The notes beneath the pieces were generated by a model. It saw only the letters and a list, made by a program, of their open reading frames with translations. It was not told the origin of the DNA and did not search any database. From the UHGV virus genome UHGV-0074612: DNA of 17,318 bases; one strand, 5' to 3'. Of the stretch, positions 50 through 17,268 are shown piece by piece. The number at the start of each line of letters is the position of its first letter. Position 1 is the stretch's first letter. Origin of the DNA: a virus. The translations under genes and the position numbers were made by a program.

Positions 50-1120
50 TTATTTGATTTCAATTTTGTCCCACTCCCTGCCTCTGTCATCACGATACTG
101 TGATGCCATGGTGTCCGACTTATGCCCGAGAAGATGTTGAGCAAACTTATCGCTTATCTGCTTCTCATAGAGTCTTGCAGACAAACTGCGCAACTCGTGA
201 AAGGTAGGCGGATCCCCTTCGAAGGAAAGACCTGATGCTTTTCGTGCGCGCATAAAATACCTTGATACTGTGCCGGATGAAAGCGGTTCGCGACGAGTAG
301 ATGCAATTATGGTTTCTCCGCCAAGAATCTCTTTGCATTTATCAAGTGTTTCCTTCATTGATATTCCGAGAGCATCAACATGCAATGCTGTTGGGATGGC
401 AATTTTTACGCCTGTTTTGCTTTGCTCGACATAAAGATATCCATCTACGATATCAGACCACTTCATTTCGCATAAATCACCAACTCGTTGCCCGGTAACA
501 ACAGCCAGTTCCATTGCAAGTCTGAGCCAACATGGTGATGATTCTGCTGCTTGATAAATTTTCAGGTATTCGTCAGCCGTAAGTCTTGATCTCCTTACCT
601 CTGATTTTGCTGCGCGAGTGGCAGCGACAGGGTTTGTTGTTATATGGCCTTCAGCTATTGCCTCTCGGAATGCATCGCTCAGTGTTGATCTGATTAACTT
701 GGCTGACGCCGCCTTGCCCTCGTCTATGTATCCATTGAGCATTGCCGCAATTTCTTTTGTGGTGATGTCTTCAAGTGGAGCATCAGGCAGACCCCTCCTT
801 ATTGCTTTAATTTTGCTCATGTAATTTATGAGTGTCTTCTGCTTGATTCCTCTGCTGGCCAGGATTTTTTCGTAGCGATCAAGCCATGAATGTAACGTAA
901 CGGAATTATCACTGTTGATTCTCGCTGTCAGAGGCTTGTGTTTGTGTCCTGAAAATAACTCAATGTTGGCCTGTATAGCTTCAGTGATTGCGATTCGCCT
1001 GTCTCGGCCTAATCCAAACTCTTTACCCGTCCTTGGGTCCCTGTAGCAGTAATATCCATTGTTTCTTATATAAAGGTTAGGGGGTAAATCCCGGCGCTCA
1101 TGACTTCGCCTTCTTCCCAT
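50..1120 (-). CDS. int: Tyrosine integrase, phage lambda Int type
   Basis: 356-aa ORF; N-terminus MGRRRSHERRDLPPNLYIRNNGYYCYRDPRTGKEFGLG and C-terminus match lambda Int as I recall it; adjacent to P' arm; overlaps xis as in lambda. Confidence 0.97.
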   Translation of the reverse strand: MGRRRSHERRDLPPNLYIRNNGYYCYRDPRTGKEFGLGRDRRIAITEAIQANIELFSGHKHKPLTARINSDNSVTLHSWLDRYEKILASRGIKQKTLINYMSKIKAIRRGLPDAPLEDITTKEIAAMLNGYIDEGKAASAKLIRSTLSDAFREAIAEGHITTNPVAATRAAKSEVRRSRLTADEYLKIYQAAESSPCWLRLAMELAVVTGQRVGDLCEMKWSDIVDGYLYVEQSKTGVKIAIPTALHVDALGISMKETLDKCKEILGGETIIASTRREPLSSGTVSRYFMRARKASGLSFEGDPPTFHELRSLSARLYEKQISDKFAQHLLGHKSDTMASQYRDDRGREWDKIEIK

Positions 1121-1316
1121 TTCTGATCCTCTTCAAAAGGCTACCTGTTACTGGTCGATTTAAGTCAACCTTTACCGCTGATTCGTGGAACAGATACTTT
1201 CTTCCATCCTTAACCGGAGGAGGGAATATCCTGCACTCGCGTACCCATCGACGAACTGTTTCAAGGCTTCTTGGGCGTCGCTGGCGTGCGTTCCACTCCT
1301 GAAGTGTCAAGTACAT
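1098..1316 (-). CDS. xis: Excisionase Xis
   Basis: 72-aa ORF MYLTLQEWNARQRRPRSLETVRRWVRECRIFPPP, lambda Xis-like; its 3' end overlaps the int start by 23 nt. Confidence 0.93.
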   Translation of the reverse strand: MYLTLQEWNARQRRPRSLETVRRWVRECRIFPPPVKDGRKYLFHESAVKVDLNRPVTGSLLKRIRNGKKAKS

Positions 1317-4352: not shown

Positions 4353-5134
4353 GCTGCCACCTTCTGCTCAGTGGCTTTCTGTTTCAGGAATCCGAGAGCT
4401 TTCACTGCTTCGACCTGTGTCAGTTCTGACGATGCGCGAATGTCGCGGCGAAATATCTGGGAACAGAGCGGCAATAAGTCGTCATCCCATGTTTTATCCA
4501 GGGCAATCAGCAGAGTGTTAATCTCCTGCATGGTTTCATCGTTAACCGGAGTGATGTCGCGTTCCGGCTGACGTTCTGCAGTGTATGCGGTATTTTCGAC
4601 AATGCGCTCGGCTTCATCCTTGTCATAGATACCAGCAAATCCGAAGGCCAGACGGGCACACTGAATCATGGCTTTATGACGTAACATCCGTTTGGGATGC
4701 GACTGCCACGGCCCCGTGATTTCTCTGCCTTCGCGGGTTTTGAATGGTTCGCGGCGGCATTCATCCATCCACTCGGTAACGCAGATCGGATGATTACGGT
4801 CCTTGCGGTAAATCCGGCATGTGCAGGATTCATTGTCCTGCTCAAAGTCCATGCCATCAAACTGCTGGTTTTCATTGATGATACGGGACCAGCCATCAAC
4901 GCCCACCACCGGAACGATGCCGTTCTGCTTGTCAGGGAAGGCGTAAATTTCTTTCGTCCACGGATTAAGGCCGTACTGGTTGGCGACGATCAACAATGCG
5001 ATGAACTGCGCATCGCTGGCATCGCCTTTAAATGCCGTCTGGCGAAGAGTGGTGATCAGTTCCTGTGGGTCGACAGAATCCATGCCGACACGTTCAGCCA
5101 GCTTCCCAGCCAGCGTTGCGAGTGCTGTACTCAT
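4349..5134 (-). CDS. bet: Single-strand annealing protein Bet (Red beta)
   Basis: 261-aa [53 protein letters not shown]..., lambda Bet length and sequence as I recall. Confidence 0.97.
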
Positions 5135-5139
5135 CCGTT

Positions 5140-5208
5140 TTATACCTCTGAATCAATATCAACCTGGTGGTGAGCAATGGTTTCAACCATGTACCGGATG
5201 TGTTCTGC
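5140..5208 (-). pseudogene. gam: 3'-terminal remnant of gam (last 22 codons plus stop)
   Basis: Minus strand encodes AEHIRYMVETIAHHQVDIDSEV then stop, 5 nt upstream of the bet ATG; matches the lambda Gam C-terminus from memory. Upstream codons (NVS...) diverge and a stop occurs at 5221-5223. Confidence 0.7.
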
Positions 5209-5228
5209 TACATTACTGAGCTAATAAC

Positions 5229-5260
5229 AGGCCTGCTGGTAATCGCAGGCCTTTTTATTT
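5229..5260 (+). terminator. Rho-independent terminator, lambda tR2-like
   Basis: 8-bp stem AGGCCTGC/GCAGGCCT (5229-5236/5245-5252), 8-nt loop, then TTTTTATTT; located just upstream of ninB as tR2 is in lambda. Confidence 0.75.
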
Positions 5261-5276
5261 GGGGGAGAGGGAAGTC

Positions 5277-5717
5277 ATGAAAAAACTAACCTTTGAAATT
5301 CGATCTCCAGCACATCAGCAAAACGCTATTCACGCAGTACAGCAAATCCTTCCAGACCCAACCAAACCAATCGTAGTAACCATTCAGGAACGCAACCGCA
5401 GCTTAGACCAAAACAGGAAGCTATGGGCCTGCTTAGGTGACGTCTCTCGTCAGGTTGAATGGCATGGTCGCTGGCTGGATGCAGAAAGCTGGAAGTGTGT
5501 GTTTACCGCAGCATTAAAGCAGCAGGATGTTGTTCCTAACCTTGCCGGGAATGGCTTTGTGGTAATAGGCCAGTCAACCAGCAGGATGCGTGTAGGCGAA
5601 TTTGCGGAGCTATTAGAGCTTATACAGGCATTCGGTACAGAGCGTGGCGTTAAGTGGTCAGACGAAGCGAGACTGGCTCTGGAGTGGAAAGCGAGATGGG
5701 GAGATCGGGCTGCATGA
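5277..5717 (+). CDS. ninB: NinB (Orf family recombination mediator)
   Basis: Track ORF 5259..5717; ATG at 5277 gives MKKLTFEIRSPAHQQNAIHAVQQILPDP..., lambda NinB-like, preceded by GGAGAGGG. Confidence 0.93.
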   Translation: MKKLTFEIRSPAHQQNAIHAVQQILPDPTKPIVVTIQERNRSLDQNRKLWACLGDVSRQVEWHGRWLDAESWKCVFTAALKQQDVVPNLAGNGFVVIGQSTSRMRVGEFAELLELIQAFGTERGVKWSDEARLALEWKARWGDRAA

Positions 5718-8121: not shown

Positions 8122-9204
8122 TTAGAACTGGTAAACCATACCTACAGCAACGATATCATCGGTAGCAACGCCAGATGCTTTCGTGAAATCGCTCTTATCA
8201 ATCAGGTTGATTTTGTAGTCAACAAAAGTGGACATATTTTTGTTGAAGTAATAGGTTGCACCTACATCAACATATTCAACCAGGTCCTGATCACCCCAAA
8301 CACCCAAGTCTTTTCCTTTAGAATGCAGGTAAGCAACGGATGGACGCAGGCCGAAGTCGAACTGATATTGTGCAACAGCTTCGAAGTTTTGTGCTTTGTT
8401 GGCAATATGGTTATTACCAAAAACAGTCATGTTCTGGGTTTCAGAATAGGTGGTGGCCAGATAGATGTTGTTCGCATCATATTTCAGACCAGCTGCCCAT
8501 ACTTCAGCATTTTGACCAGAAGCATTCAGACCGTTGTTACCGTAGATAACCTGATTATTAGTGCGATCAGATTTAGCATAGGTTGCACCCACGCCGAATC
8601 CTTCATACTCATAAGTAGTTGAGAAACCGAAACCATCGCCATTAGCTTCAGTTACTTCATTTCGGTCATTTTTGCCCTGATACTGAGCTGCAAAGTTCAG
8701 GCCATCAACCAGACCAAAGAAGTCGTTGTTACGATAAGTTGCAACACCTGTGGTGCGACCAGTCATGAATACATCTGTTTGGGTCCAGGTATCGCCACCG
8801 AATTCTGGCAGAACGTCGGTCCATGCACCGATGTCGTATGCTACACCGTAGTTACGGCCGTAATCGATGGAGCCGTAGTCACCGAATTTCAGGCCAGCGA
8901 AGGCAAGACGGGTTTTATCTTTGGAGGAACCTTGAGATTCAGCGCGGTTGCCTTTGAATTCATATTCCCACTGACCGAAACCAGTCAGTTGATCGTTGAT
9001 TTGGGTTTCACCTTTGAAGCCAAGACGGGCATAAGTAGTATCACCATCATCTGCATCATTAGAGGAGAAGTAGTGCTTAGCATTAACTTTCCCGTACAGA
9101 TCCAGCTTGTTACTGTCTTTATTATAAATTTCAGCTGCCTGAGCAGACATCGCCATCAGTACTGATGCAGCTACAGCAGAAATTGCCACTGTTAATTTTT
9201 TCAT
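8122..9204 (-). CDS. nmpC: OmpC/OmpF-family general porin, prophage-encoded (NmpC/Lc-like)
   Basis: 360-aa ORF with signal peptide [23 protein letters not shown] then AEIYNKD..., C-terminal VGMVYQF ending in Phe; located between Q and the holin on the opposite strand, as nmpC is in DLP12. Confidence 0.93.
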
Positions 9205-10976: not shown

Positions 10977-11000
10977 AGCCTCGCGATGCGGGGCTTTTTG
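10977..11000 (+). terminator. Lysis-operon terminator 1
   Basis: 8-bp stem AGCCTCGC/GCGGGGCT (one G-U pair) with GAT loop then TTTTG. Confidence 0.55.
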
Positions 11001-11006
11001 CAATAA

Positions 11007-11031
11007 ATGCGTACCGCAACGCATGTTTTTT
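11007..11031 (+). terminator. Lysis-operon terminator 2
   Basis: 6-bp stem ATGCGT/ACGCAT, 6-nt loop, followed by GTTTTTT. Confidence 0.6.
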
Positions 11032-11146
11032 ACACCGAACCTGCCCCTTTGGAATGGGCCTTTGAGGATACCAGTTAGTGCTGGCGAGCCTCGGTGGGCT
11101 GGTTTCCTGTGCGGCAAAGGTTCATTTCAAAGAGTAGGTACACGCT

Positions 11147-11644
11147 ATGAAATCATTAACCCTCTTCAATCAACCAATTCGTATCGGTGAAGATGGCATG
11201 ATCTGCCTCACTGATATGTGGAAAGCCAGTGGTAAAAGTGAATCTGAATCGCCTTACCACTACCTGCGAAACAAGCAGACCAAAGAGTTCTTAGCCGAGC
11301 TGGAGAAAAACCACGAATCTGTGGTTTTTACTGAGCGCGGTGTACACGGTGGAACATATGGCGGGAAGTTTGTTGCTTACGATTATGCGGCTTGGTTAAA
11401 CCCCGGGTTCAAGTACGCGGCCTATAAAGTCCTCGATGACTACTTCACCGGAGAACTTCAGCATCGCAACAGCTTAAGTGCGCAGCTCAACATGAAATGT
11501 CATGAGTTTGACCAGAAGAAAGACATGGCGAGCTTCTGCGGACAAGGGCTGGCAGCATGGCGCTATACGAAGCCAGTGTTGGTCGCTGAGATTAACTCCC
11601 TGGCTAACCAGCTGCAGATTACGATCCCCGGGCTTCCGGGATGA
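11147..11644 (+). CDS. KilA-N/Bro-N-like domain protein (165 aa)
   Basis: N-terminal FNQPIRIGEDGMICLTDMWKASGK fits the KilA-N pattern (F..IR...DG..........A.G) by eye. Confidence 0.65.
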   Translation: MKSLTLFNQPIRIGEDGMICLTDMWKASGKSESESPYHYLRNKQTKEFLAELEKNHESVVFTERGVHGGTYGGKFVAYDYAAWLNPGFKYAAYKVLDDYFTGELQHRNSLSAQLNMKCHEFDQKKDMASFCGQGLAAWRYTKPVLVAEINSLANQLQITIPGLPG

Positions 11645-11910
11645 GTGATCGTGTCATTGAATGCGCCTCCAGAGCGGGGCGCGACTTCTCAGAGTTCATG
11701 AAAGGCGAGAAGGGCATGATGGAAGCATTGGCCTCGGTGGATGAGTTTGGCGAGCAGCTGCGCCTCAACGGCTGTGTCAATCATCACTTTGTTAGCTACA
11801 TGATGCGGAACTCGATCATGCAGGCATTCATGGACATGGCAAAAGCCGAGAGGAAAGAAGAGCGCCGGCGTAAGCGAGCGGAAGCAAAAGCAAAAGCAAA
11901 AGTGAAGTAG
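11641..11910 (+). CDS. Hypothetical protein (89 aa) with Lys/Arg/Ala/Glu-rich C-terminal tail
   Basis: ATGA overlap with the stop of the KilA-N-like gene; C-terminus AKAERKEERRRKRAEAKAKAKVK. Confidence 0.6.
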   Translation: MSDRVIECASRAGRDFSEFMKGEKGMMEALASVDEFGEQLRLNGCVNHHFVSYMMRNSIMQAFMDMAKAERKEERRRKRAEAKAKAKVK

Positions 11911-11947
11911 CCATTACAAAGCCCATTTACGGGTGGGCTTGATAATG
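11911..11947. repeat. Hairpin-containing element, copy A
   Basis: CCATTACAAAGCCCATTTACGGGTGGGCTTGATAATG immediately after the TAG of the 89-aa gene; stem AAGCCCA/TGGGCTT (11919-11925/11934-11940). Confidence 0.5.
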
Positions 11948-12134
11948 AAACCGGAATTTATTCTGGGCCACCAGTTAACGGCAGTACCACGAAACAACCC
12001 AAGCCAGTAAGTGGGGAAATAACACCGGCAGCCACTGAAAGATGAACCTCCTGCCTTATGGCAAAAAAGATTCTTTGTGGTGGCGGACTGATGGAAAGAC
12101 ATCCTAATTTCAGCCAAACATTGAAGGAGTTGTT

Positions 12135-12206
12135 ATGTCAGCAGAAGGTTTCAATAACCCATCAAAATTCCGGGATGAGTGGGATAGCAGCGTAAAGAGT
12201 AAGTGA
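12135..12206 (+). CDS. Candidate 23-aa ORF MSAEGFNNPSKFRDEWDSSVKSK
   Basis: AAGGAG Shine-Dalgarno 6 nt upstream of the ATG; stop immediately precedes copy B of the hairpin element. Confidence 0.3.
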   Translation: MSAEGFNNPSKFRDEWDSSVKSK

Positions 12207-12207
12207 T

Positions 12208-12249
12208 GCCATCACAAAAGCCATTCCCTACAGAGTGGCTTTGATAATG
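12208..12249. repeat. Hairpin-containing element, copy B
   Basis: GCCATCACAAAAGCCATTCCCTACAGAGTGGCTTTGATAATG; shares the CCAT(Y)ACAAA(A)GCC ... GGCTT(T)GATAATG framework with copy A, with base changes that still pair in the stem. Confidence 0.5.
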
Positions 12250-12264
12250 GCTTATACCCTACAC

Positions 12265-12290
12265 GGGATAACTTAACTGATATCCCTTTT
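12265..12290 (+). terminator. Possible intrinsic terminator
   Basis: Stem GGGATA/TATCCC (12265-12270/12281-12286), 10-nt loop, then TTTT. Confidence 0.4.
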
Positions 12291-12498
12291 AAAGGATAAA
12301 GGCATTCAAGCCTGACACATCATGCGCTGTATCGTCGCCGTATTCCCGTATTAACAGAGACCGTAGCCCGACGGGGAACTCCTTCTGCGCGAGTGTGCGG
12401 GAATAATCAAAAACGATGCACACCGGGGTTACCGGGTACACATATTTCATCATGCCAGCGAGTCCGGTTCTGGCACGGAAGAAACCGGACGTTATGAT

Positions 12499-12909
12499 TT
12501 AGTGCGGAAATATTTGTGTAGTGTTCTGAATGTTCTCAGTAAAGAGTAATGAATTATCAAAGGTATAGTAATACCTTTTGTTTTCGTGGATATTTGTAAT
12601 CCATCTGAAAACCCCTGCTGTAGCAAGATTTTTCCTGTATTCGTAAAATGATAACTCTCCTGATTTGAATCCTTTTAAGGTGGCTTCTATAAGGCATTTA
12701 TTTTTTGAAAATCTTACATTTACAACCTTACCCTGTCCTTTTATTAAAACCGTATTATCGTTTTCAAGAACAAGATGAATATTCTCTGTGGCTAAATAGT
12801 AAATGTAATGTGAGACATTGTGACGTTTTAGTTCAGAATAAAACCAGTGATAGTTTAAATTATTTCGCACTTTATCGAATATTTGTTTAAAAATGGCAAC
12901 CTGAGCCAT
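12499..12909 (-). CDS. YbcV-like (DUF1398-like) protein, 136 aa, AT-rich
   Basis: Track ORF 12499..12924; ATG at 12909 preceded by GAAGGT gives [17 protein letters not shown]..., matching my recollection of DLP12 YbcV and its 136-aa length. Gene is markedly AT-rich relative to its flanks. Confidence 0.75.
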
Positions 12910-12966
12910 TGTAGTACCTTCCATGTGATATGAGGGGGCGTAGTCTGCACGATTATCTAAATTGCT

Positions 12967-13200
12967 TCAATCTGGTCTAACCTGTTTTCTGAGCAATTCA
13001 GTAATGTCACTCTTTTCTTTGTTTGCTTCAGGCGAAACTCTTTTTTCTGAGCACAGTCTCCGGCGGCAGGCTTCAATGACCCAGGCTGAGAAATTCCCGG
13101 ACCCTTTTTGAACAAGAGCGATGTTAATTTGTTCAATCATTTGGTTAGGAAAGCGGATGTTGCGGGTTGTTGTTCTGCGGGTTCTGTTCTTCGTTGACAT
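12967..13200 (-). CDS. YlcI-like small protein with putative ribbon-helix-helix fold (77 aa)
   Basis: Co-directional and 42 bp upstream of the YbcV-like gene; basic N-terminus then RNIRFPNQMIEQINIALVQKGSGNFSAWVIEACRRRL, which reads like a strand-helix-helix unit. Confidence 0.6.
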   Translation of the reverse strand: MSTKNRTRRTTTRNIRFPNQMIEQINIALVQKGSGNFSAWVIEACRRRLCSEKRVSPEANKEKSDITELLRKQVRPD

Positions 13201-13379
13201 GAGGTTGCCCCGTATTCAGTGTCGCTGATTTGTATTGTCTGAAGTTGTTTTTACGTTAAGTTGATGCAGATCAATTAATACGATACCTGCGTCATAATTG
13301 ATTATTTGACGTGGTTTGATGGCGTAGATGCACGTTGTGACATGTAGATGATAATTATTATCATTTTGCGGGTCCTTTC

Positions 13380-13445
13380 CGGCGATCCGACAGGTTACGG
13401 GGCGGAAGGCGCGCGGGTTTTCGCTATTTATGAAAATTTTCCGGG
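13380..13445. other. cos site region with cosN-like 12-mer at 13400-13411
   Basis: GCGATCCGACAGGTTACG + GGGCGGAAGGCG + CGCGGGTTTTCGCTATTTATGAAAATTTTCCGG; both flanks match the lambda right and left ends as I recall, but the 12-mer differs from lambda GGGCGGCGACCT at its last six positions. Confidence 0.65.
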
Positions 13446-13508
13446 GAAAATCATGTCGGTACTTCTCGAACATAACTATTTGTTTTTTCTAATATCGAAT
13501 CCGTAAAA

Positions 13509-13563
13509 GGTCCGACATGAAAACGCCTAAAAAAGTCATTTTCGGGCACTTTCATGTCGGACC
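13509..13563. repeat. Perfect 14-bp inverted repeat with 27-bp A-rich spacer, in cosB position
   Basis: GGTCCGACATGAAA (13509-13522) and TTTCATGTCGGACC (13550-13563); sits between the cosN-like site and the Nu1-like start codon at 13588. Confidence 0.7.
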
Positions 13564-13587
13564 CTGTGTTTGTTGTTAGACTGTTTC

Positions 13588-13704
13588 ATGAAGGTTAATA
13601 AAAAGAAACTTGCCGAAATTTTCAACGTGGATCCGCGAACGATTGAACGCTGGCAGTCTCAGGGACTCCCTTGCGTCTCCGGAGGTGGCAGCGGGCCATC
13701 ATGA
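13588..13704 (+). pseudogene. Terminase small subunit (Nu1/gp1-like), N-terminal 38-codon stub
   Basis: [38 protein letters not shown] then stop; resembles the Nu1 N-terminal DNA-binding segment (lambda MEVNKKQLADIFGASIRTIQNWQEQGMPVLRGGG). The frame ends where terminase A homology begins. Confidence 0.75.
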
Positions 13705-14570
13705 ATGCGATGGGCAGTGACTACATCCGCGAGGTGAATGTGGTGAAGTCTGCCCGTGTTGGTTATTCCAAAATGCTGCTGGGTGTTTATGCCTACTTCA
13801 TAGAGCATAAGCAGCGCAACACCCTTATCTGGTTGCCGACGGATGGTGATGCCGAGAACTTTATGAAAACCCACGTTGAGCCGACTATTCGTGATATTCC
13901 GTCGCTGCTGGCGCTGGCCCCGTGGTATGGCAAAAAGCACCGGGATAACACGCTCACCATGAAGCGTTTCACTAATGGGCGTGGCTTCTGGTGCCTGGGC
14001 GGTAAAGCGGCAAAAAACTACCGTGAAAAGTCGGTGGATGTGGCGGGTTATGATGAACTTGCTGCTTTTGATGATGATATTGAACAGGAAGGCTCTCCGA
14101 CGTTCCTGGGTGACAAGCGTATTGAAGGCTCGGTCTGGCCAAAGTCCATCCGTGGCTCCACGCCCAAAGTGAGAGGCACCTGCCAGATTGAGCGTGCAGC
14201 CAGTGAATCCCCGCATTTTATGCGTTTTCATGTTGCCTGCCCGCACTGCGGGGAGGAGCAGTATCTTAAATTTGGCGACAAAGAGACGCCGTTTGGCCTC
14301 AAATGGACGCCGGATGACCCCTCCAGCGTGTTTTATCTCTGCGAGCATAATGCCTGCGTCATCCGCCAGCAGGAGCTGGACTTTACTGATGCCCGTTATA
14401 TCTGCGAAAAGACCGGGATCTGGACCCGTGATGGCATTCTCTGGTTTTCGTCATCCGGTGAAGAGATTGAGCCGCCGGACAGTGTGACCTTTCACATCTG
14501 GACGGCGTACAGCCCGTTCACCACCTGGGTGCAGATTGTCAAAGACTGGATGAAGACGAAAGGGGATACC
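13689..14570 (+). pseudogene. Terminase large subunit A, internal fragment (about residues 58-350 of lambda gpA)
   Basis: Track ORF 13671..14630; [50 protein letters not shown]... through ...[14 protein letters not shown] is lambda gpA as I recall. It lacks the gpA N-terminus and C-terminal half; the frame then runs into J-derived sequence out of frame. Confidence 0.85.
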
Positions 14571-14571
14571 C

Positions 14572-15883
14572 GAACACGGCACTGGTCGGCGTGCAGGTGG
14601 ACTCGGAGCAGTTCGGCAGCCAGCAGGTGAGCCGTAATTATCATCTGCGCGGGCGCATTCTGCAGGTGCCGTCGAACTATAACCCGCAGACGCGGCAATA
14701 CAGCGGTATCTGGGATGGAACGTTTAAGCCAGCATACAGCAACAACATGGCCTGGTGTCTGTGGGATATGCTGACCCATCCGCGCTACGGCATGGGGAAA
14801 CGTCTTGGTGCAGCAGATGTGGATAAATGGACGCTGTATGTCATCGGCCAGTACTGCGACCAGTTGGTACCGAATGGTTTTGGCGGCACGGAGCCGCGCA
14901 TCACCTGTAATGCCTGGCTGACCACACAGCGTAAGGCGTGGGATGTGCTCAGTGATTTCTGCTCGGCGATGCGCTGTATGCCGGTATGGAACGGGCAGAC
15001 GCTGACGTTCGTGCAGGACCGACCATCAGATAAGGTGTGGACCTATAACCGCAGTAATGTGGTGATGCCGGATGATGGCGCGCCGTTCCGCTACAGCTTC
15101 AGCGCCCTGAAGGACCGCCATAATGCCGTTGAGGTGAACTGGATTGACCCGAACAACGGCTGGGAGACGGCGACAGAGCTTGTTGAAGATACGCAGGCCA
15201 TTGCCCGTTACGGTCGTAATGTCACGAAGATGGATGCCTTTGGCTGTACCAGCCGGGGGCAGGCACACCGCGCCGGGCTGTGGCTGATTAAAACGGAACT
15301 GCTGGAGACGCAGACCGTGGATTTCAGCGTGGGTGCTGAAGGGCTTCGCCATGTACCGGGCGATGTCATTGAAATCTGCGATGATGACTATGCCGGTATC
15401 AGCACCGGTGGTCGCGTGCTGGCGGTGAACAGCCAGACCCGGACGCTGACGCTCGACCGTGAAATCACGCTGCCATCTTCCGGCACCACGCTGATAAGCC
15501 TGGTTGACGGGCAGGGGAGTCCGGTCAGCGTGGAGGTTCAGTCCGTCACCGACGGACTTAAGGTGAAAGTGAACCGGGTTCCTGACGGCGTTGCAGAATA
15601 CAGTGTGTGGGGGCTGAAGTTGCCGACGTTGCGTCAGCGCCTGTTCCGCTGTGTGAGTATCCGTGAGAACGATGACGGCACGTATGCCATCACTGCCGTG
15701 CAGCATGTACCGGAAAAAGAAGCCATCGTGGATAACGGGGCGCACTTTGACGGCGACCAGAGCGGCACGGTGAATGATGTCACGCCGCCAGCGGTGCAGC
15801 ACCTGACTGCCGAAGTCACCGCAGACAGCGGGGAATATCAGGTGCTGGCGCGCTGGGACACGCCGAAGGTGGTGAAGGGGGTG
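14572..15883 (+). pseudogene. Tail tip protein J, internal fragment
   Basis: Track ORF 14591..16687 begins at a GTG inside J-like sequence ([28 protein letters not shown]...). J homology runs to ...[12 protein letters not shown]; the J N-terminal third and C-terminal receptor-binding region are absent. Confidence 0.85.
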
Positions 15884-16687
15884 AAGGCACATTACAGAAA
15901 TGGAGGTCTGTTCTACCGTTCCTCAAGAGATGGCTATGGTTTTGAGGAAGACTGGGCAGAAGTTTATACCTCGAAAAATCTTCCACCAGAAAGCTACCCA
16001 GTCGGCGCACCAATCCCGTGGCCATCAGATACCGTTCCGTCTGGTTATGCCCTGATGCAGGGGCAGACTTTTGACAAATCTGCATACCCGAAACTTGCAG
16101 CCGCTTATCCGTCAGGCGTGATCCCTGATATGCGTGGCTGGACGATTAAGGGCAAACCTGCCAGTGGTCGCGCCGTATTGTCTCAGGAACAGGACGGCAT
16201 TAAATCGCACACCCACAGCGCCAGCGCATCCAGTACGGATTTGGGGACGAAAACCACATCGTCGTTTGATTACGGAACCAAATCCACGAATAACACCGGG
16301 GCGCATACCCATAGTATTAGCGGGACCGCAAATAGTGCCGGCGCGCACCAACACAAGAGTTCCGGTGCATTTGGTGGCACGAACACGAGCATTTTCCCTA
16401 ATGGTTATACCGCGATTTCAAATCCAAGCGCGGGGATTATGAGCACAACAAGCGGTAGTGGTCAGACTCGTAATGCAGGGAAGACATCATCAGATGGTGC
16501 TCATACCCACTCGCTGTCCGGCACTGCTGCAAGCGCAGGCGCACATGCACATACTGTCGGTATTGGTGCTCATACGCACTCCGTTGCGATTGGCTCACAT
16601 GGACACACCATCACCGTTAACGCTGCGGGTAACGCGGAAAACACCGTCAAAAACATCGCATTTAACTATATTGTGAGGCTTGCATAA
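15884..16687 (+). pseudogene. Side tail fibre (Stf-like) C-terminal region, fused in frame to the J fragment
   Basis: ...[45 protein letters not shown]... with repeated Gly/His boxes ([30 protein letters not shown]) and C-terminus [11 protein letters not shown], typical of lambda Stf and T4 gp37-type fibre tips. Confidence 0.8.
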
Positions 16688-17268
16688 TGGCATTCAGAAT
16701 GAGTGAACAAGCACGGACCATAAAAATTTATAATCTGCTGGCCGGAACTAATGAATTTATTGGTGAAGGTGACGCATATATTCCGCCTCATACAGGTCTG
16801 CCAGCAAACAGTACCGATATTGCACCACCAGATATTCCGGCAGGCTTCGTGGCTGTTTTCAACAGTGATGAGGCATCGTGGCATCTCGTTGAAGACCATC
16901 GGGGGAAAACGGTTTATGACGTAGCGTCAGGGGACGAGTTATTTATTTCTGAACTCGGTCCGTTACCGGAAAATGTTACCTGGTTATCGCCGGGAGGGGA
17001 ATATCAGAAGTGGAACGGCACAGCCTGGGTGAAGGATACGGAAGCAGAAAAACTGTTCCGGATCCGGGAGGCGGAAGAAACAAAAAACAGCCTGATGCAG
17101 ATAGCCAGTGAGCATATAGCGCCGCTTCAGGATGCTGTGGATCTGGAGATCGCAACGGAGGAAGAAACCTTGTTGCTGGAAGCCTGGAAAAAGTATCGGG
17201 TGTTGCTGAACCGTGTTGATACATCAACTGCACCGGATATTGAATGGCCAGTAGCACCTATAGGGTAA
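16687..17268 (+). CDS. tfa: Tail fibre assembly protein Tfa
   Basis: 193-aa [42 protein letters not shown]...; start overlaps the stop of the upstream tail-fibre ORF; lambda Tfa-like length and sequence as I recall. Confidence 0.9.

Follow-up and report, generated by a model that had tools for sequence, protein, structure and literature searches.

The closest described relatives of the locus analysed here are two defective lambdoid prophages of Escherichia coli K-12, DLP12 and Qin. DLP12 carries a late set comprising rusA, ylcG, a quuD-type Q, an nmpC/ompC-type porin, essD, rrrD, Rz, DUF1398 (ybcV), ylcI and nu1/nohD. Its fragment of the terminase gene A (nucleotides (nt) 1–308, aaaD) is joined to tfaD through a 3-nt overlap; the region for immunity and replication has been lost, and fragments of exoD, peaD and renD lie side by side. 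In Qin, one deletion from the packaging genes to J and another from J to stf have left a mid-J piece, the C-terminal part of stf and an intact tfa (nohA–J'–stf'–tfaQ–pinQ). A survey of 1,384 prophages found incomplete ones to be depleted in packaging, replication and release genes and enriched in tail fibre and integrase genes (PMC7744054). We analysed a 17,318-nt stretch of viral DNA, UHGV-0074612 (hereafter the window; all positions are its coordinates), which carries a lambdoid prophage remnant in which A runs directly into the middle of J. Judging from sequence, we consider it about 90% probable that this A–J junction is a genuine scar, at which a lambdoid prophage occupying the lambda attachment site (att-lambda) of an E. 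coli lineage lost ~14.4 kb by internal deletion. Scars of this kind are well known, with DLP12 and Qin as direct precedents.

The window element resembles DLP12 in having this late set in the same order, a truncated A and no immunity and replication region. By contrast, DLP12 occupies the argU site with another integrase, whereas the window element is found at att-lambda and encodes Int and Xis of lambda type; DLP12 is joined from A nt 308 to tfa, the window element from A nt 1049 to J codon 212; and nmpC of K-12 is split by the insertion sequence (IS) element IS5, while the porin gene of the window element is intact. The scars of the two elements are independent events. Qin is alike in its two successive deletions and in the pieces that they spared. 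Its left break, however, is at lambda nt 697, close to the 3' end of nu1 and immediately ahead of the A start codon; its J fragment covers lambda 17229–17833, compared with 16138–17455 in the window; and its chromosomal site is on the ydfJ side. A variant of Qin in CREC-532, encoding an A(1–350)–Stf fusion (WP_049254577.1), shares with the window element the identical A end, a microhomology junction and a retained tfa. It differs in its partner, stfQ, which is joined in frame, in its intact nu1 and A 5' end, in its A allele (19 differences in 800 nt) and in its location at the Qin locus. The A–J scar is a case of ordinary prophage decay, with one exception: its break point in A recurs in other independent remnants, which we regard as a modest, checkable lead.

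The break points were set in base-by-base three-way alignments against three references, namely lambda, the intact prophage of E. coli CE0021a and the apparently intact prophage of the ETEC strain TW10590, and all three gave the same switch bases. By blastn, the gene A block (13689–14578) corresponds to lambda 879–1768 with 98.4% identity, and the gene J block (14567–15884) to lambda 16138–17455 with 94.9% identity. Identity with A ends at 14569, which is lambda 1759, A nt 1049 and codon T350 of 641 (...AAAGGGGATAC; aligned end ...GACGAAAGGGGATAC). Identity with J begins at 14567, which is lambda 16138 and codon Y212 of 1132 (TACCCGAACACGG; aligned start TACCCGAACACGGCACTGG). The two genes overlap at the junction only in the 3 bp TAC (14567–14569, plus strand; lambda 1757–1759 in A and 16138–16140 in J), and the following nine bases match at six positions. 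As A lies in frame 0 of the window and J in frame 2, the join is out of frame. The deleted stretch of ~14.38 kb measures 14,381 bp relative to lambda, 14,379 bp relative to CE0021a and 14,378 bp relative to TW10590. An earlier reading of this DNA (the original prediction) had A homology stopping at KTKGDT, at about 14570, and J homology resuming at once in a different frame, and had proposed alignment to lambda as a means of placing both ends; the alignments to lambda and its two relatives agree with it and fix both ends to the exact base.

We then compared the 24 lambda proteins encoded from nu1 to tfa with the window using tblastn. Nu1 (residues 1–30), A (56–353), J (212–655), Stf (orf-314; 69–314) and Tfa (1–192) were detected. 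No match in the window was obtained for W, B, C, D, E, FI, FII, Z, U, V, G, T, H, M, L, K, I, lom or orf-401, so that the loss of every gene from W through I, which the original prediction had asserted, is borne out. Its further claim that the element makes neither capsids nor tails is supported by the absence of head and tail-shaft homologues, from which an inability to form particles would follow. The A–J scar by itself would mark the prophage as dead, incapable of packaging DNA or of building heads or tails. The scar has no function of its own; what remains on either side of it are two pseudogene fragments.

The A–J scar is one of four internal deletions in the remnant, which together amount to ~27 kb relative to CE0021a and have 3, 3, 1 and 0 bp of microhomology at their junctions. 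At the J–stf scar (15882–15884, plus strand), J codon 650 is joined in frame to the C-terminal third of stf at a 3-bp TGA; the 4,757 bp lost relative to CE0021a comprised the 3' end of J, lom and the 5' part of stf. At the gam–ninB scar (5208; context 5134–5300), a 3' remnant of gam is joined to the ren–ninB spacer with a 1-bp overlap. Relative to CE0021a, 7,336 bp have gone there, including the 5' part of gam, kil, cIII, ral, sieB, the N region, the repressor, a cro-like gene, cII, O, P and ren, and this deletion leaves the prophage without an immunity or replication module. The fourth scar joins nu1 codon ~33 to A codon 56, bluntly (0 bp overlap) and out of frame, at 13688/13689, with 587 bp lost; upstream of it remains nu1' (13588–13688, plus strand), the first ~33 codons of the TW10590 prophage allele. 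The unbroken nu1–A arrangement of this nu1 allele is present in 539 complete genomes.

The genomic setting of the remnant is that of phage lambda. In E. coli CE0021a, a 44-kb lambdoid prophage collinear with the window occupies the lambda attachment site, between ybhC and ybhB–bioA, and the att core GCTTTTTTATACTAA is 25 bp left of the point matching window position 1. The integrase and excisionase genes (50–1316, minus strand; 356 and 72 residues), at the attL end, are of lambda type and apparently intact (Pfam: Phage_integrase, Arm-DNA-bind_1 and Exc), and this segment is 99.6% identical to the CE0021a prophage beside ybhC. The right end is seen on a 120-kb contig (L004), where tfa is followed by 3.3 kb holding only an AraC-type gene and IS fragments. 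An attR-like core, ACTTTTTTATACTAA, closes this stretch and adjoins ybhB–bioABFCD, and many E. coli genomes match the bio flank at 100% identity. The whole remnant thus measures ~20.6 kb, with the layout ybhC, int ... tfa, bioA. Head or tail genes elsewhere in the same prophage would have spoken against the original prediction; none is present in the window, which starts 25 bp inside attL, or in the 3.3 kb beyond tfa on L004.

The remnant has no repressor, no replication genes, no working terminase, no capsid and no tail, and by its gene content its induction would yield no infectious particles. Together, the A–J scar and the others point to an element that could no longer be repressed, replicated or induced. 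It is a defective (cryptic) lambdoid prophage of the DLP12, Qin and Rac kind, as indicated by its attachment site and own integrase, its lambdoid gene order, the loss of essential lytic functions and its chromosomal inheritance. Modules of a phage satellite of the phage-inducible chromosomal island (PICI) type were also looked for: the called genes of the element encode no primase, replication initiator or master-repressor domain detectable with Pfam, the region that holds them in lambdoid phages being deleted. The cos region, which is identical to that of the apparently intact TW10590 prophage, would be a candidate packaging signal for a helper phage. The retained set of int/xis, recombination genes, nin region, porin, lysis cassette and tail fibre end agrees with published surveys, and the element offers a natural example of stepwise prophage decay through microhomology joins.

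The same scars are found in other assemblies. An exact look-up placed a 698-residue J'–Stf' chimera, the product of the A–J and J–stf scars, on 15 contigs, the longest of 1.34 Mb. Four of these were read (ENA ERZ1741985, ERZ28641206 and ERZ918237; NCBI GCA_948144105.1): they are 99.85–99.94% identical to the window and contain every scar within their span. All four scars are carried by the three longest, and the ERZ918237 contig (3.5 kb) spans only window 13217–16721, ending short of the gam–ninB scar at 5208. An IMG/VR contig (L045) covers 11840–16684 with three of the four scars and 100% identity over 4,845 bp. On the question of whether the scar is shared or strain-specific, which the original prediction had raised, we find it common to one lineage: the 309-residue A' protein specific to the scar is encoded on 37 contigs (accessions including EFB8625712.1 and HAH9129153.1), the same count giving 10 contigs for the 698-residue chimera, and the A–J, J–stf and gam–ninB junctions occur in 0 of 5,426 complete RefSeq E. 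coli genomes. A 35-mer across A–J had no matches in GTDB species representatives or JGI metagenomes. The A–J scar is independent of any single assembly and confined to one uncommon lineage, and the remnant, whose scars recur with the same chromosomal surroundings in several assemblies, is passed on vertically as part of the chromosome.

Differences among the carriers are few and cluster in tfa (16905–16937 and 16986–17148), for example six changes in 33 bp; this clustering suggests later patchy gene conversion from other tfa copies. ET220, which had appeared to match the whole window (78% coverage), was rejected as a carrier, as the match consists of two neighbouring prophages that the search tool had joined.

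The junction has left two truncated reading frames. A' (13689–14630, plus strand), the remnant of the terminase large subunit, retains homology over 13689–14569 (codons 56–350), followed by 19 frameshifted codons and a TGA at 14628–14630; gene callers start it at the ATG at 13701, giving 309 residues. Its frameshifted tail is caused by the frame difference between A and J, and the 309-residue protein is hence specific to the scar. The N-terminal segment of gpA (first ~50 residues) binds the small subunit Nu1. A' lacks the first 55 residues, this Nu1-interacting region, its homology beginning at gpA residue 56. In a Pfam search, the GpA_ATPase domain (PF05876) was kept, with 157.7 bits over profile positions 19–237 of 247, and GpA_nuclease (PF20454) reached 18.7 bits, under the cutoff of 22.5, over profile positions 2–34 of 294. 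The intact CE0021a allele has both domains, with the nuclease scoring 251 bits over residues 322–600. With the Nu1-binding segment and the endonuclease domain gone and the ATPase domain present, A' should not be a functional lambda-type terminase large subunit.

J' (14567–15884, plus strand) consists of codons 212–650 of 1132, without the N-terminal 211 residues and the C-terminal receptor-binding part. Pfam shows its Phage-tail_3 domain to be complete and its Ig_J domain to break off at profile position 43 of 104. As both ends are missing, J' is not expected to be a functional tail tip or host specificity protein. Owing to the two flanking scars, J' is part of the chimeric open reading frame J'–Stf' (14591–16687, plus strand), which runs from mid-J into the Stf C-terminal part, passing beyond the Ig_J cut into Stf collar and fibre repeats (Pfam). 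Its start codon, a GTG, lacks an obvious ribosome-binding site (Shine–Dalgarno sequence), and the chimera has been deposited as SPX35658.1, 'Host specificity protein J of prophage'. The adjoining tfa (16687–17268, plus strand; tail fibre assembly) is intact, encoding 193 residues with 94% identity to lambda Tfa (tblastn) and a Caudo_TAP domain (Pfam). We read A' and J' as probable pseudogene remnants because domains have been lost or cut, the chimera starts at a GTG without a Shine–Dalgarno sequence and the pL, pR and N region is deleted; with these gone, nothing obvious would be left to express Q and drive the late operon. The labels 'terminase large subunit' and 'host specificity protein J' on these fragments should read pseudogene remnants.

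For the origin of the junction, we propose that a DNA end in A (...AAAGGGGATAC, gpA codon 350) was joined to J just past the TAC at codon 212. The joining would have been independent of homology beyond 3 bp of microhomology and would have removed W, B, C/Nu3, D, E, FI, FII, Z, U, V, G, T, H, M, L, K and I together with the first 211 codons of J. Possible routes are RecA-independent alternative end-joining and template switching primed from a defined 3' end. Illegitimate joining is suggested by the 3, 3, 1 and 0 bp shared at the four junctions. A comparable process operates in lambda lysogens: PMC11372144 and PMC3375238 describe Spi-/lambda-bio illegitimate recombination as RecA-independent joining at few shared bases in or near the prophage, modulated by RecQ, SSB and end resection. 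Those events, however, are aberrant excisions, prophage-to-host joins selected as viable phage, whereas the scar in the window is internal and would kill the phage. No crossover site of the Pin/Gin/Hin type, secondary att site of lambda Int, Chi site or Type I, IIS or III restriction site aligns with the break, as compared by eye only.

The exact A end of the window is not confined to it. We searched with a probe made of the 26 bases of A before the break (14544–14569; 20175–20200 in locus L012) followed by a non-native continuation. The left end ...AAAGGGGATAC is common to five junction types, with J codon 212 and four other partners (a slash marks the crossover below). The junction with J codon 212 is that of the window and L045. 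The junction with stfQ came to light because some E. coli terminase genes matched 15 bases past the break; it belongs to the Qin variant of CREC-532, present in 61 of the 5,426 complete genomes, whose 601-residue annotated 'terminase' is gpA 1–350 fused in frame to the Stf C-terminus. Its partner site in K-12-type Qin reads GACGGGATAC/GACCGAC, giving 7–8 bp of microhomology. The remaining three types lead in frame to a C-terminal site in stf (right side CCATAGTTTAAGTGG; L041, at the Qin locus), out of frame to a mid site in stf (right side CTTCTGCCCGTAAGG; L042, L043, L046–L048 and 11 complete genomes) and out of frame to the portal gene B (lambda 3889, native GGCTAC/TCCGTG; L044). All partners with a known native sequence end in TAC at the crossover (GCTAC, GGCTAC and GGGATAC at three junctions), the L041 and L042 types being the two of five for which no native sequence is known. 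As controls, the same type of probe was run against IMG/VR for six other positions in A', three of which likewise end in TAC; these yielded no scars, only single-nucleotide polymorphism (SNP) alleles with native continuation.

To relate the scarred alleles, we compared the last 800 nt of A' before the break. They do not cluster. The A' of the window differs at 4 positions from intact TW10590 and at 19–27 from the CREC-type and L047-type scarred alleles (19 for CREC); the CREC allele is 3 differences from intact CE0021a, the L041 allele 10 from the intact Escherichia sp. allele E1V33, and the L044 allele at least 20 from every allele compared. The alleles of different scar types differ even 15 nt from the junction (A/G). 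Because the scarred alleles are ungrouped and each is nearest to a different intact allele, this pattern favours several independent events that used one exact A end, and suggests a deletion hot spot at the A break, whatever its cause. Breakage or priming apparently favours this A-side end. A single ancestral A' end for all scars was considered and is unsupported by the allele distances. Likewise unsupported is a derivation of the Qin variants as nested deletions from an L042-type scar through recombination between direct repeats: the L042 stf reads GGGATTATACC, and the right side of CREC is 100% K-12 stfQ.

The explanation for the fixed end that fares best is a sequence-directed hot spot, in which a recurrent nick, break or polymerase pause after ...GGGGATAC(G) in lambda-type A genes would create a defined 3' end, which is then joined to some downstream site ending in TAC; the scar in the window would count among several independent products. 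We hold this to be quite possible, though short of probable. Five different right-hand partners on one exact left end speak for it, as do the TAC endings of the known native partners, the six scar-free control positions and the ungrouped A' alleles. The single-stranded DNA fold at the site has z = -2.7 relative to shuffled sequences, with the break at the 5' edge of the hairpin loop. A fixed, unresected 3' end whose TAC pairs with the partner and primes microhomology-mediated joining would yield the recurrent-end pattern. Two causes can be imagined, both speculative. One is the quasi-palindrome ACGAA.GG..TACG[GGAAAA]CGTA..CC.TTCGT, either cut by an SbcCD-type activity at the loop's 5' edge or causing pausing and template switching. 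The other, purely speculative, is off-target nicking by terminase, as TACG^GG resembles the cosN nick site TTACG^GGGCGG.

Several points tell against a hot spot. The site was chosen because the window has its scar there, and the controls comprise six positions in one collection; the hairpin is short, with a 4-bp inner stem; and three of the five junction types lie at the Qin locus and may have a common history. Other break points in A also exist: nt 246 (to L), 939 and 1484 (to a tail fibre gene) in sampled complete genomes, nt 308 in DLP12, and one that leads into a TipJ-type gene, ~145 nt upstream of the hot spot. The fuller claim, that codon 350 (...AAAGGGGATAC/GGGAAAACG) marks an intrinsic hot spot for sequence-directed breakage or template switching at which independent prophage-killing deletions arose at att-lambda and Qin with B, J and three stf sites as partners, we put forward as tentative and rather doubtful. 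If true, a fragile site in A would provide a testable handle on lambdoid prophage inactivation, and prophage 'domestication' would be channelled in part by a fragile packaging-gene site instead of being random. It would also account for the frequent A(1–350) fragments beside tail fibre genes in E. coli and for the draft assembly breaks there. A two-ended break or an IS should also generate a reciprocal class of junctions, X/GGGAAAACGTAAAACC, that retain the right part of A; template switching in one direction should not.

Three further observations concern this end. The A–stf-mid scar with identical A' (800 nt) is found at the Qin locus in L047 and in an att-lambda prophage in L046 and L048 (ybhC–int and AraC-type gene flanks). 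Deletion scars are evidently copied between co-resident lambdoid prophages via homologous flanks, so that scars, and not genes alone, pass between such prophages by recombination. The nohA–J' junction of K-12-type Qin (L008, 11970–11980) lies inside ...GAACTGATAC/CGGGG, which also has GATAC followed by a G-rich run (compare GGGGATAC/GGGAA); this may be coincidence. Among GTDB representatives, all 28 matches to the A 26-mer have the native continuation, a result that says little on the hot spot. Of the 28 assemblies (L013–L040), 24 are from unrelated organisms, among them Chromatium, Kitasatospora, Prevotella, Pseudomonas and metagenome-assembled genomes of Bacillota; their contigs are mostly short or of low coverage, almost all carry the exact lambda sequence just past the probe, and the matches look mostly like contamination with lambda control DNA (spike-in).

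A second explanation for the fixed end invokes an IS. An ancestral A::IS allele, with an element of the IS3, IS1 or IS30 family inserted after ...GATAC, would have undergone excision assisted by the IS-excision enhancer (IEE) together with an adjacent rightward deletion and rejoining at microhomology. IEE-dependent excision of an IS deletes from a few nt to >40 kb beside it, and IEE, found in >30% of E. coli assemblies, carries out microhomology-mediated end joining (PMC9943667). Deletions of this type (IS629 and the IS3, IS1 and IS30 families) resemble the A scars: one end is exact, the other varies and may lie tens of kb off, and the join is made at a few bases of microhomology (PMC9943667). 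The A scars likewise have one exact end, variable partners, 3–8 bp of terminal microhomology and no IS at the junction, with rejoining at TAC, TAC and GGGATAC where the native partners are known. An A::IS allele could moreover have spread between prophages as scars do, judging from the A–stf scar with identical A' at Qin and att-lambda. We nevertheless regard this origin as unlikely. A probe of ...GATAC followed by a non-G and a G, suited to IS3- and IS30-type ends, which start with TG, had 0 matches in IMG/VR, and no A::IS allele was found in IMG/VR, among the 28 GTDB matches or in the loci read. The junction-side A' alleles differ between scar types and group with different intact alleles, which speaks against one common disrupted ancestor. 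The known IS30 hot spot of lambda (LHS) was rejected as a source, as it lies at 33244–33498, outside A (PMC9333248).

No observation contradicts a deletion scar as such. Some weigh against reading the junction as ordinary decay that left pseudogenes. The recurrence of the same A end in four other junctions fits poorly with a purely random break. In addition, the fragments contain no secondary stops or frameshifts, with only 4 differences from an intact allele in the 881 bases of A' and the 698-residue chimera fully open, and selection may thus act on both. However, the carriers diverge by only ~0.1% (2–19 SNPs in 3.5–12.7 kb), so decay has not had time to act and the open frames say nothing on selection.

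The corresponding alternative, which we consider highly improbable, is that the retained pieces are domesticated: J'–Stf' together with Tfa, or the ATPase fragment in A', would be expressed and benefit the host, one possibility being a receptor-blocking anti-phage protein like StfE2 of e14. The chimera is open over 2.1 kb next to an intact tfa, and incomplete prophages are enriched in tail fibre genes (PMC7744054). A chimeric tail fibre protein of a cryptic prophage blocks T2 adsorption (PMC12529663), and the in-frame A(1–350)–Stf fusion is kept in 61 complete genomes, annotated as a normal coding sequence. By contrast, the J–stf join cuts Ig_J at profile position 43 of 104, the GTG start has no visible ribosome-binding site, and the loss of the pL, pR and N region would leave no driver for Q and the late operon; carrier divergence is too low for an open frame to inform on selection, and two of the five hot-spot junctions are out of frame. 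The reading of A' and J' as pseudogene remnants is therefore the one we retain.

The idea that A–J is an assembly chimera of A-bearing and J-bearing contigs in a polylysogenic genome has a negligible chance of being correct: several lambda-like copies of A and J are common in E. coli (median of 3 places per genome) and draft contigs often end shortly past the break (partial proteins ...GDTGKRKTF...), but the identical junction and the three other scars recur in independent ENA, NCBI and IMG/VR assemblies, including contigs of 120 kb and 1.34 Mb, and 3 shared bases are too few to mislead an assembler. Many 'partial' terminase proteins from draft E. coli genomes (A' cluster: P0003, P0005, P0010 and P0014–P0016) end 6–20 residues past KTKGDT. 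Such contig breaks may reflect genomes in which an intact A coexists with a copy cut off at codon 350, and would then be an indirect sign of scar frequency.

The rest of the remnant follows the lambdoid order. From the left, it encodes Int, Xis, small early-left genes, Exo, Bet, NinB, a Dam-type methylase, NinE, NinX, RusA, YlcG and a QuuD-type antiterminator; then, to the right, a porin on the other strand, holin, lysozyme, Rz, a KilA-N protein, a DUF1398 protein and a YlcI-like protein, followed by cos, nu1', A', J'–stf' and tfa. The porin gene (8122–9204, minus strand; OmpC/NmpC-type, 360 residues), between Q and the lysis genes, is intact and the counterpart of nmpC; it is probably the one cargo gene of the remnant with its own expression. 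Relative to CE0021a, two segments are mosaic replacements: 1403–2501, encoding a DUF551 protein, a dATP/dGTP pyrophosphohydrolase and an Ea22-like protein, and 11000–11961, encoding a KilA-N/ORF11CD3 protein and an 89-residue open reading frame without a Pfam match. The cos region (13393–13587, plus strand) has the cosN variant GGGCGGAAGGCG at 13400–13411, followed by cosB-side sequence, and is identical to that of the apparently intact TW10590 prophage. A mutated cos was considered, given GGGCGGCGACCT in lambda, and dropped: the same variant in the TW10590 prophage makes it a natural cos type. It is inside cos that the window turns from CE0021a-like to TW10590-like sequence.

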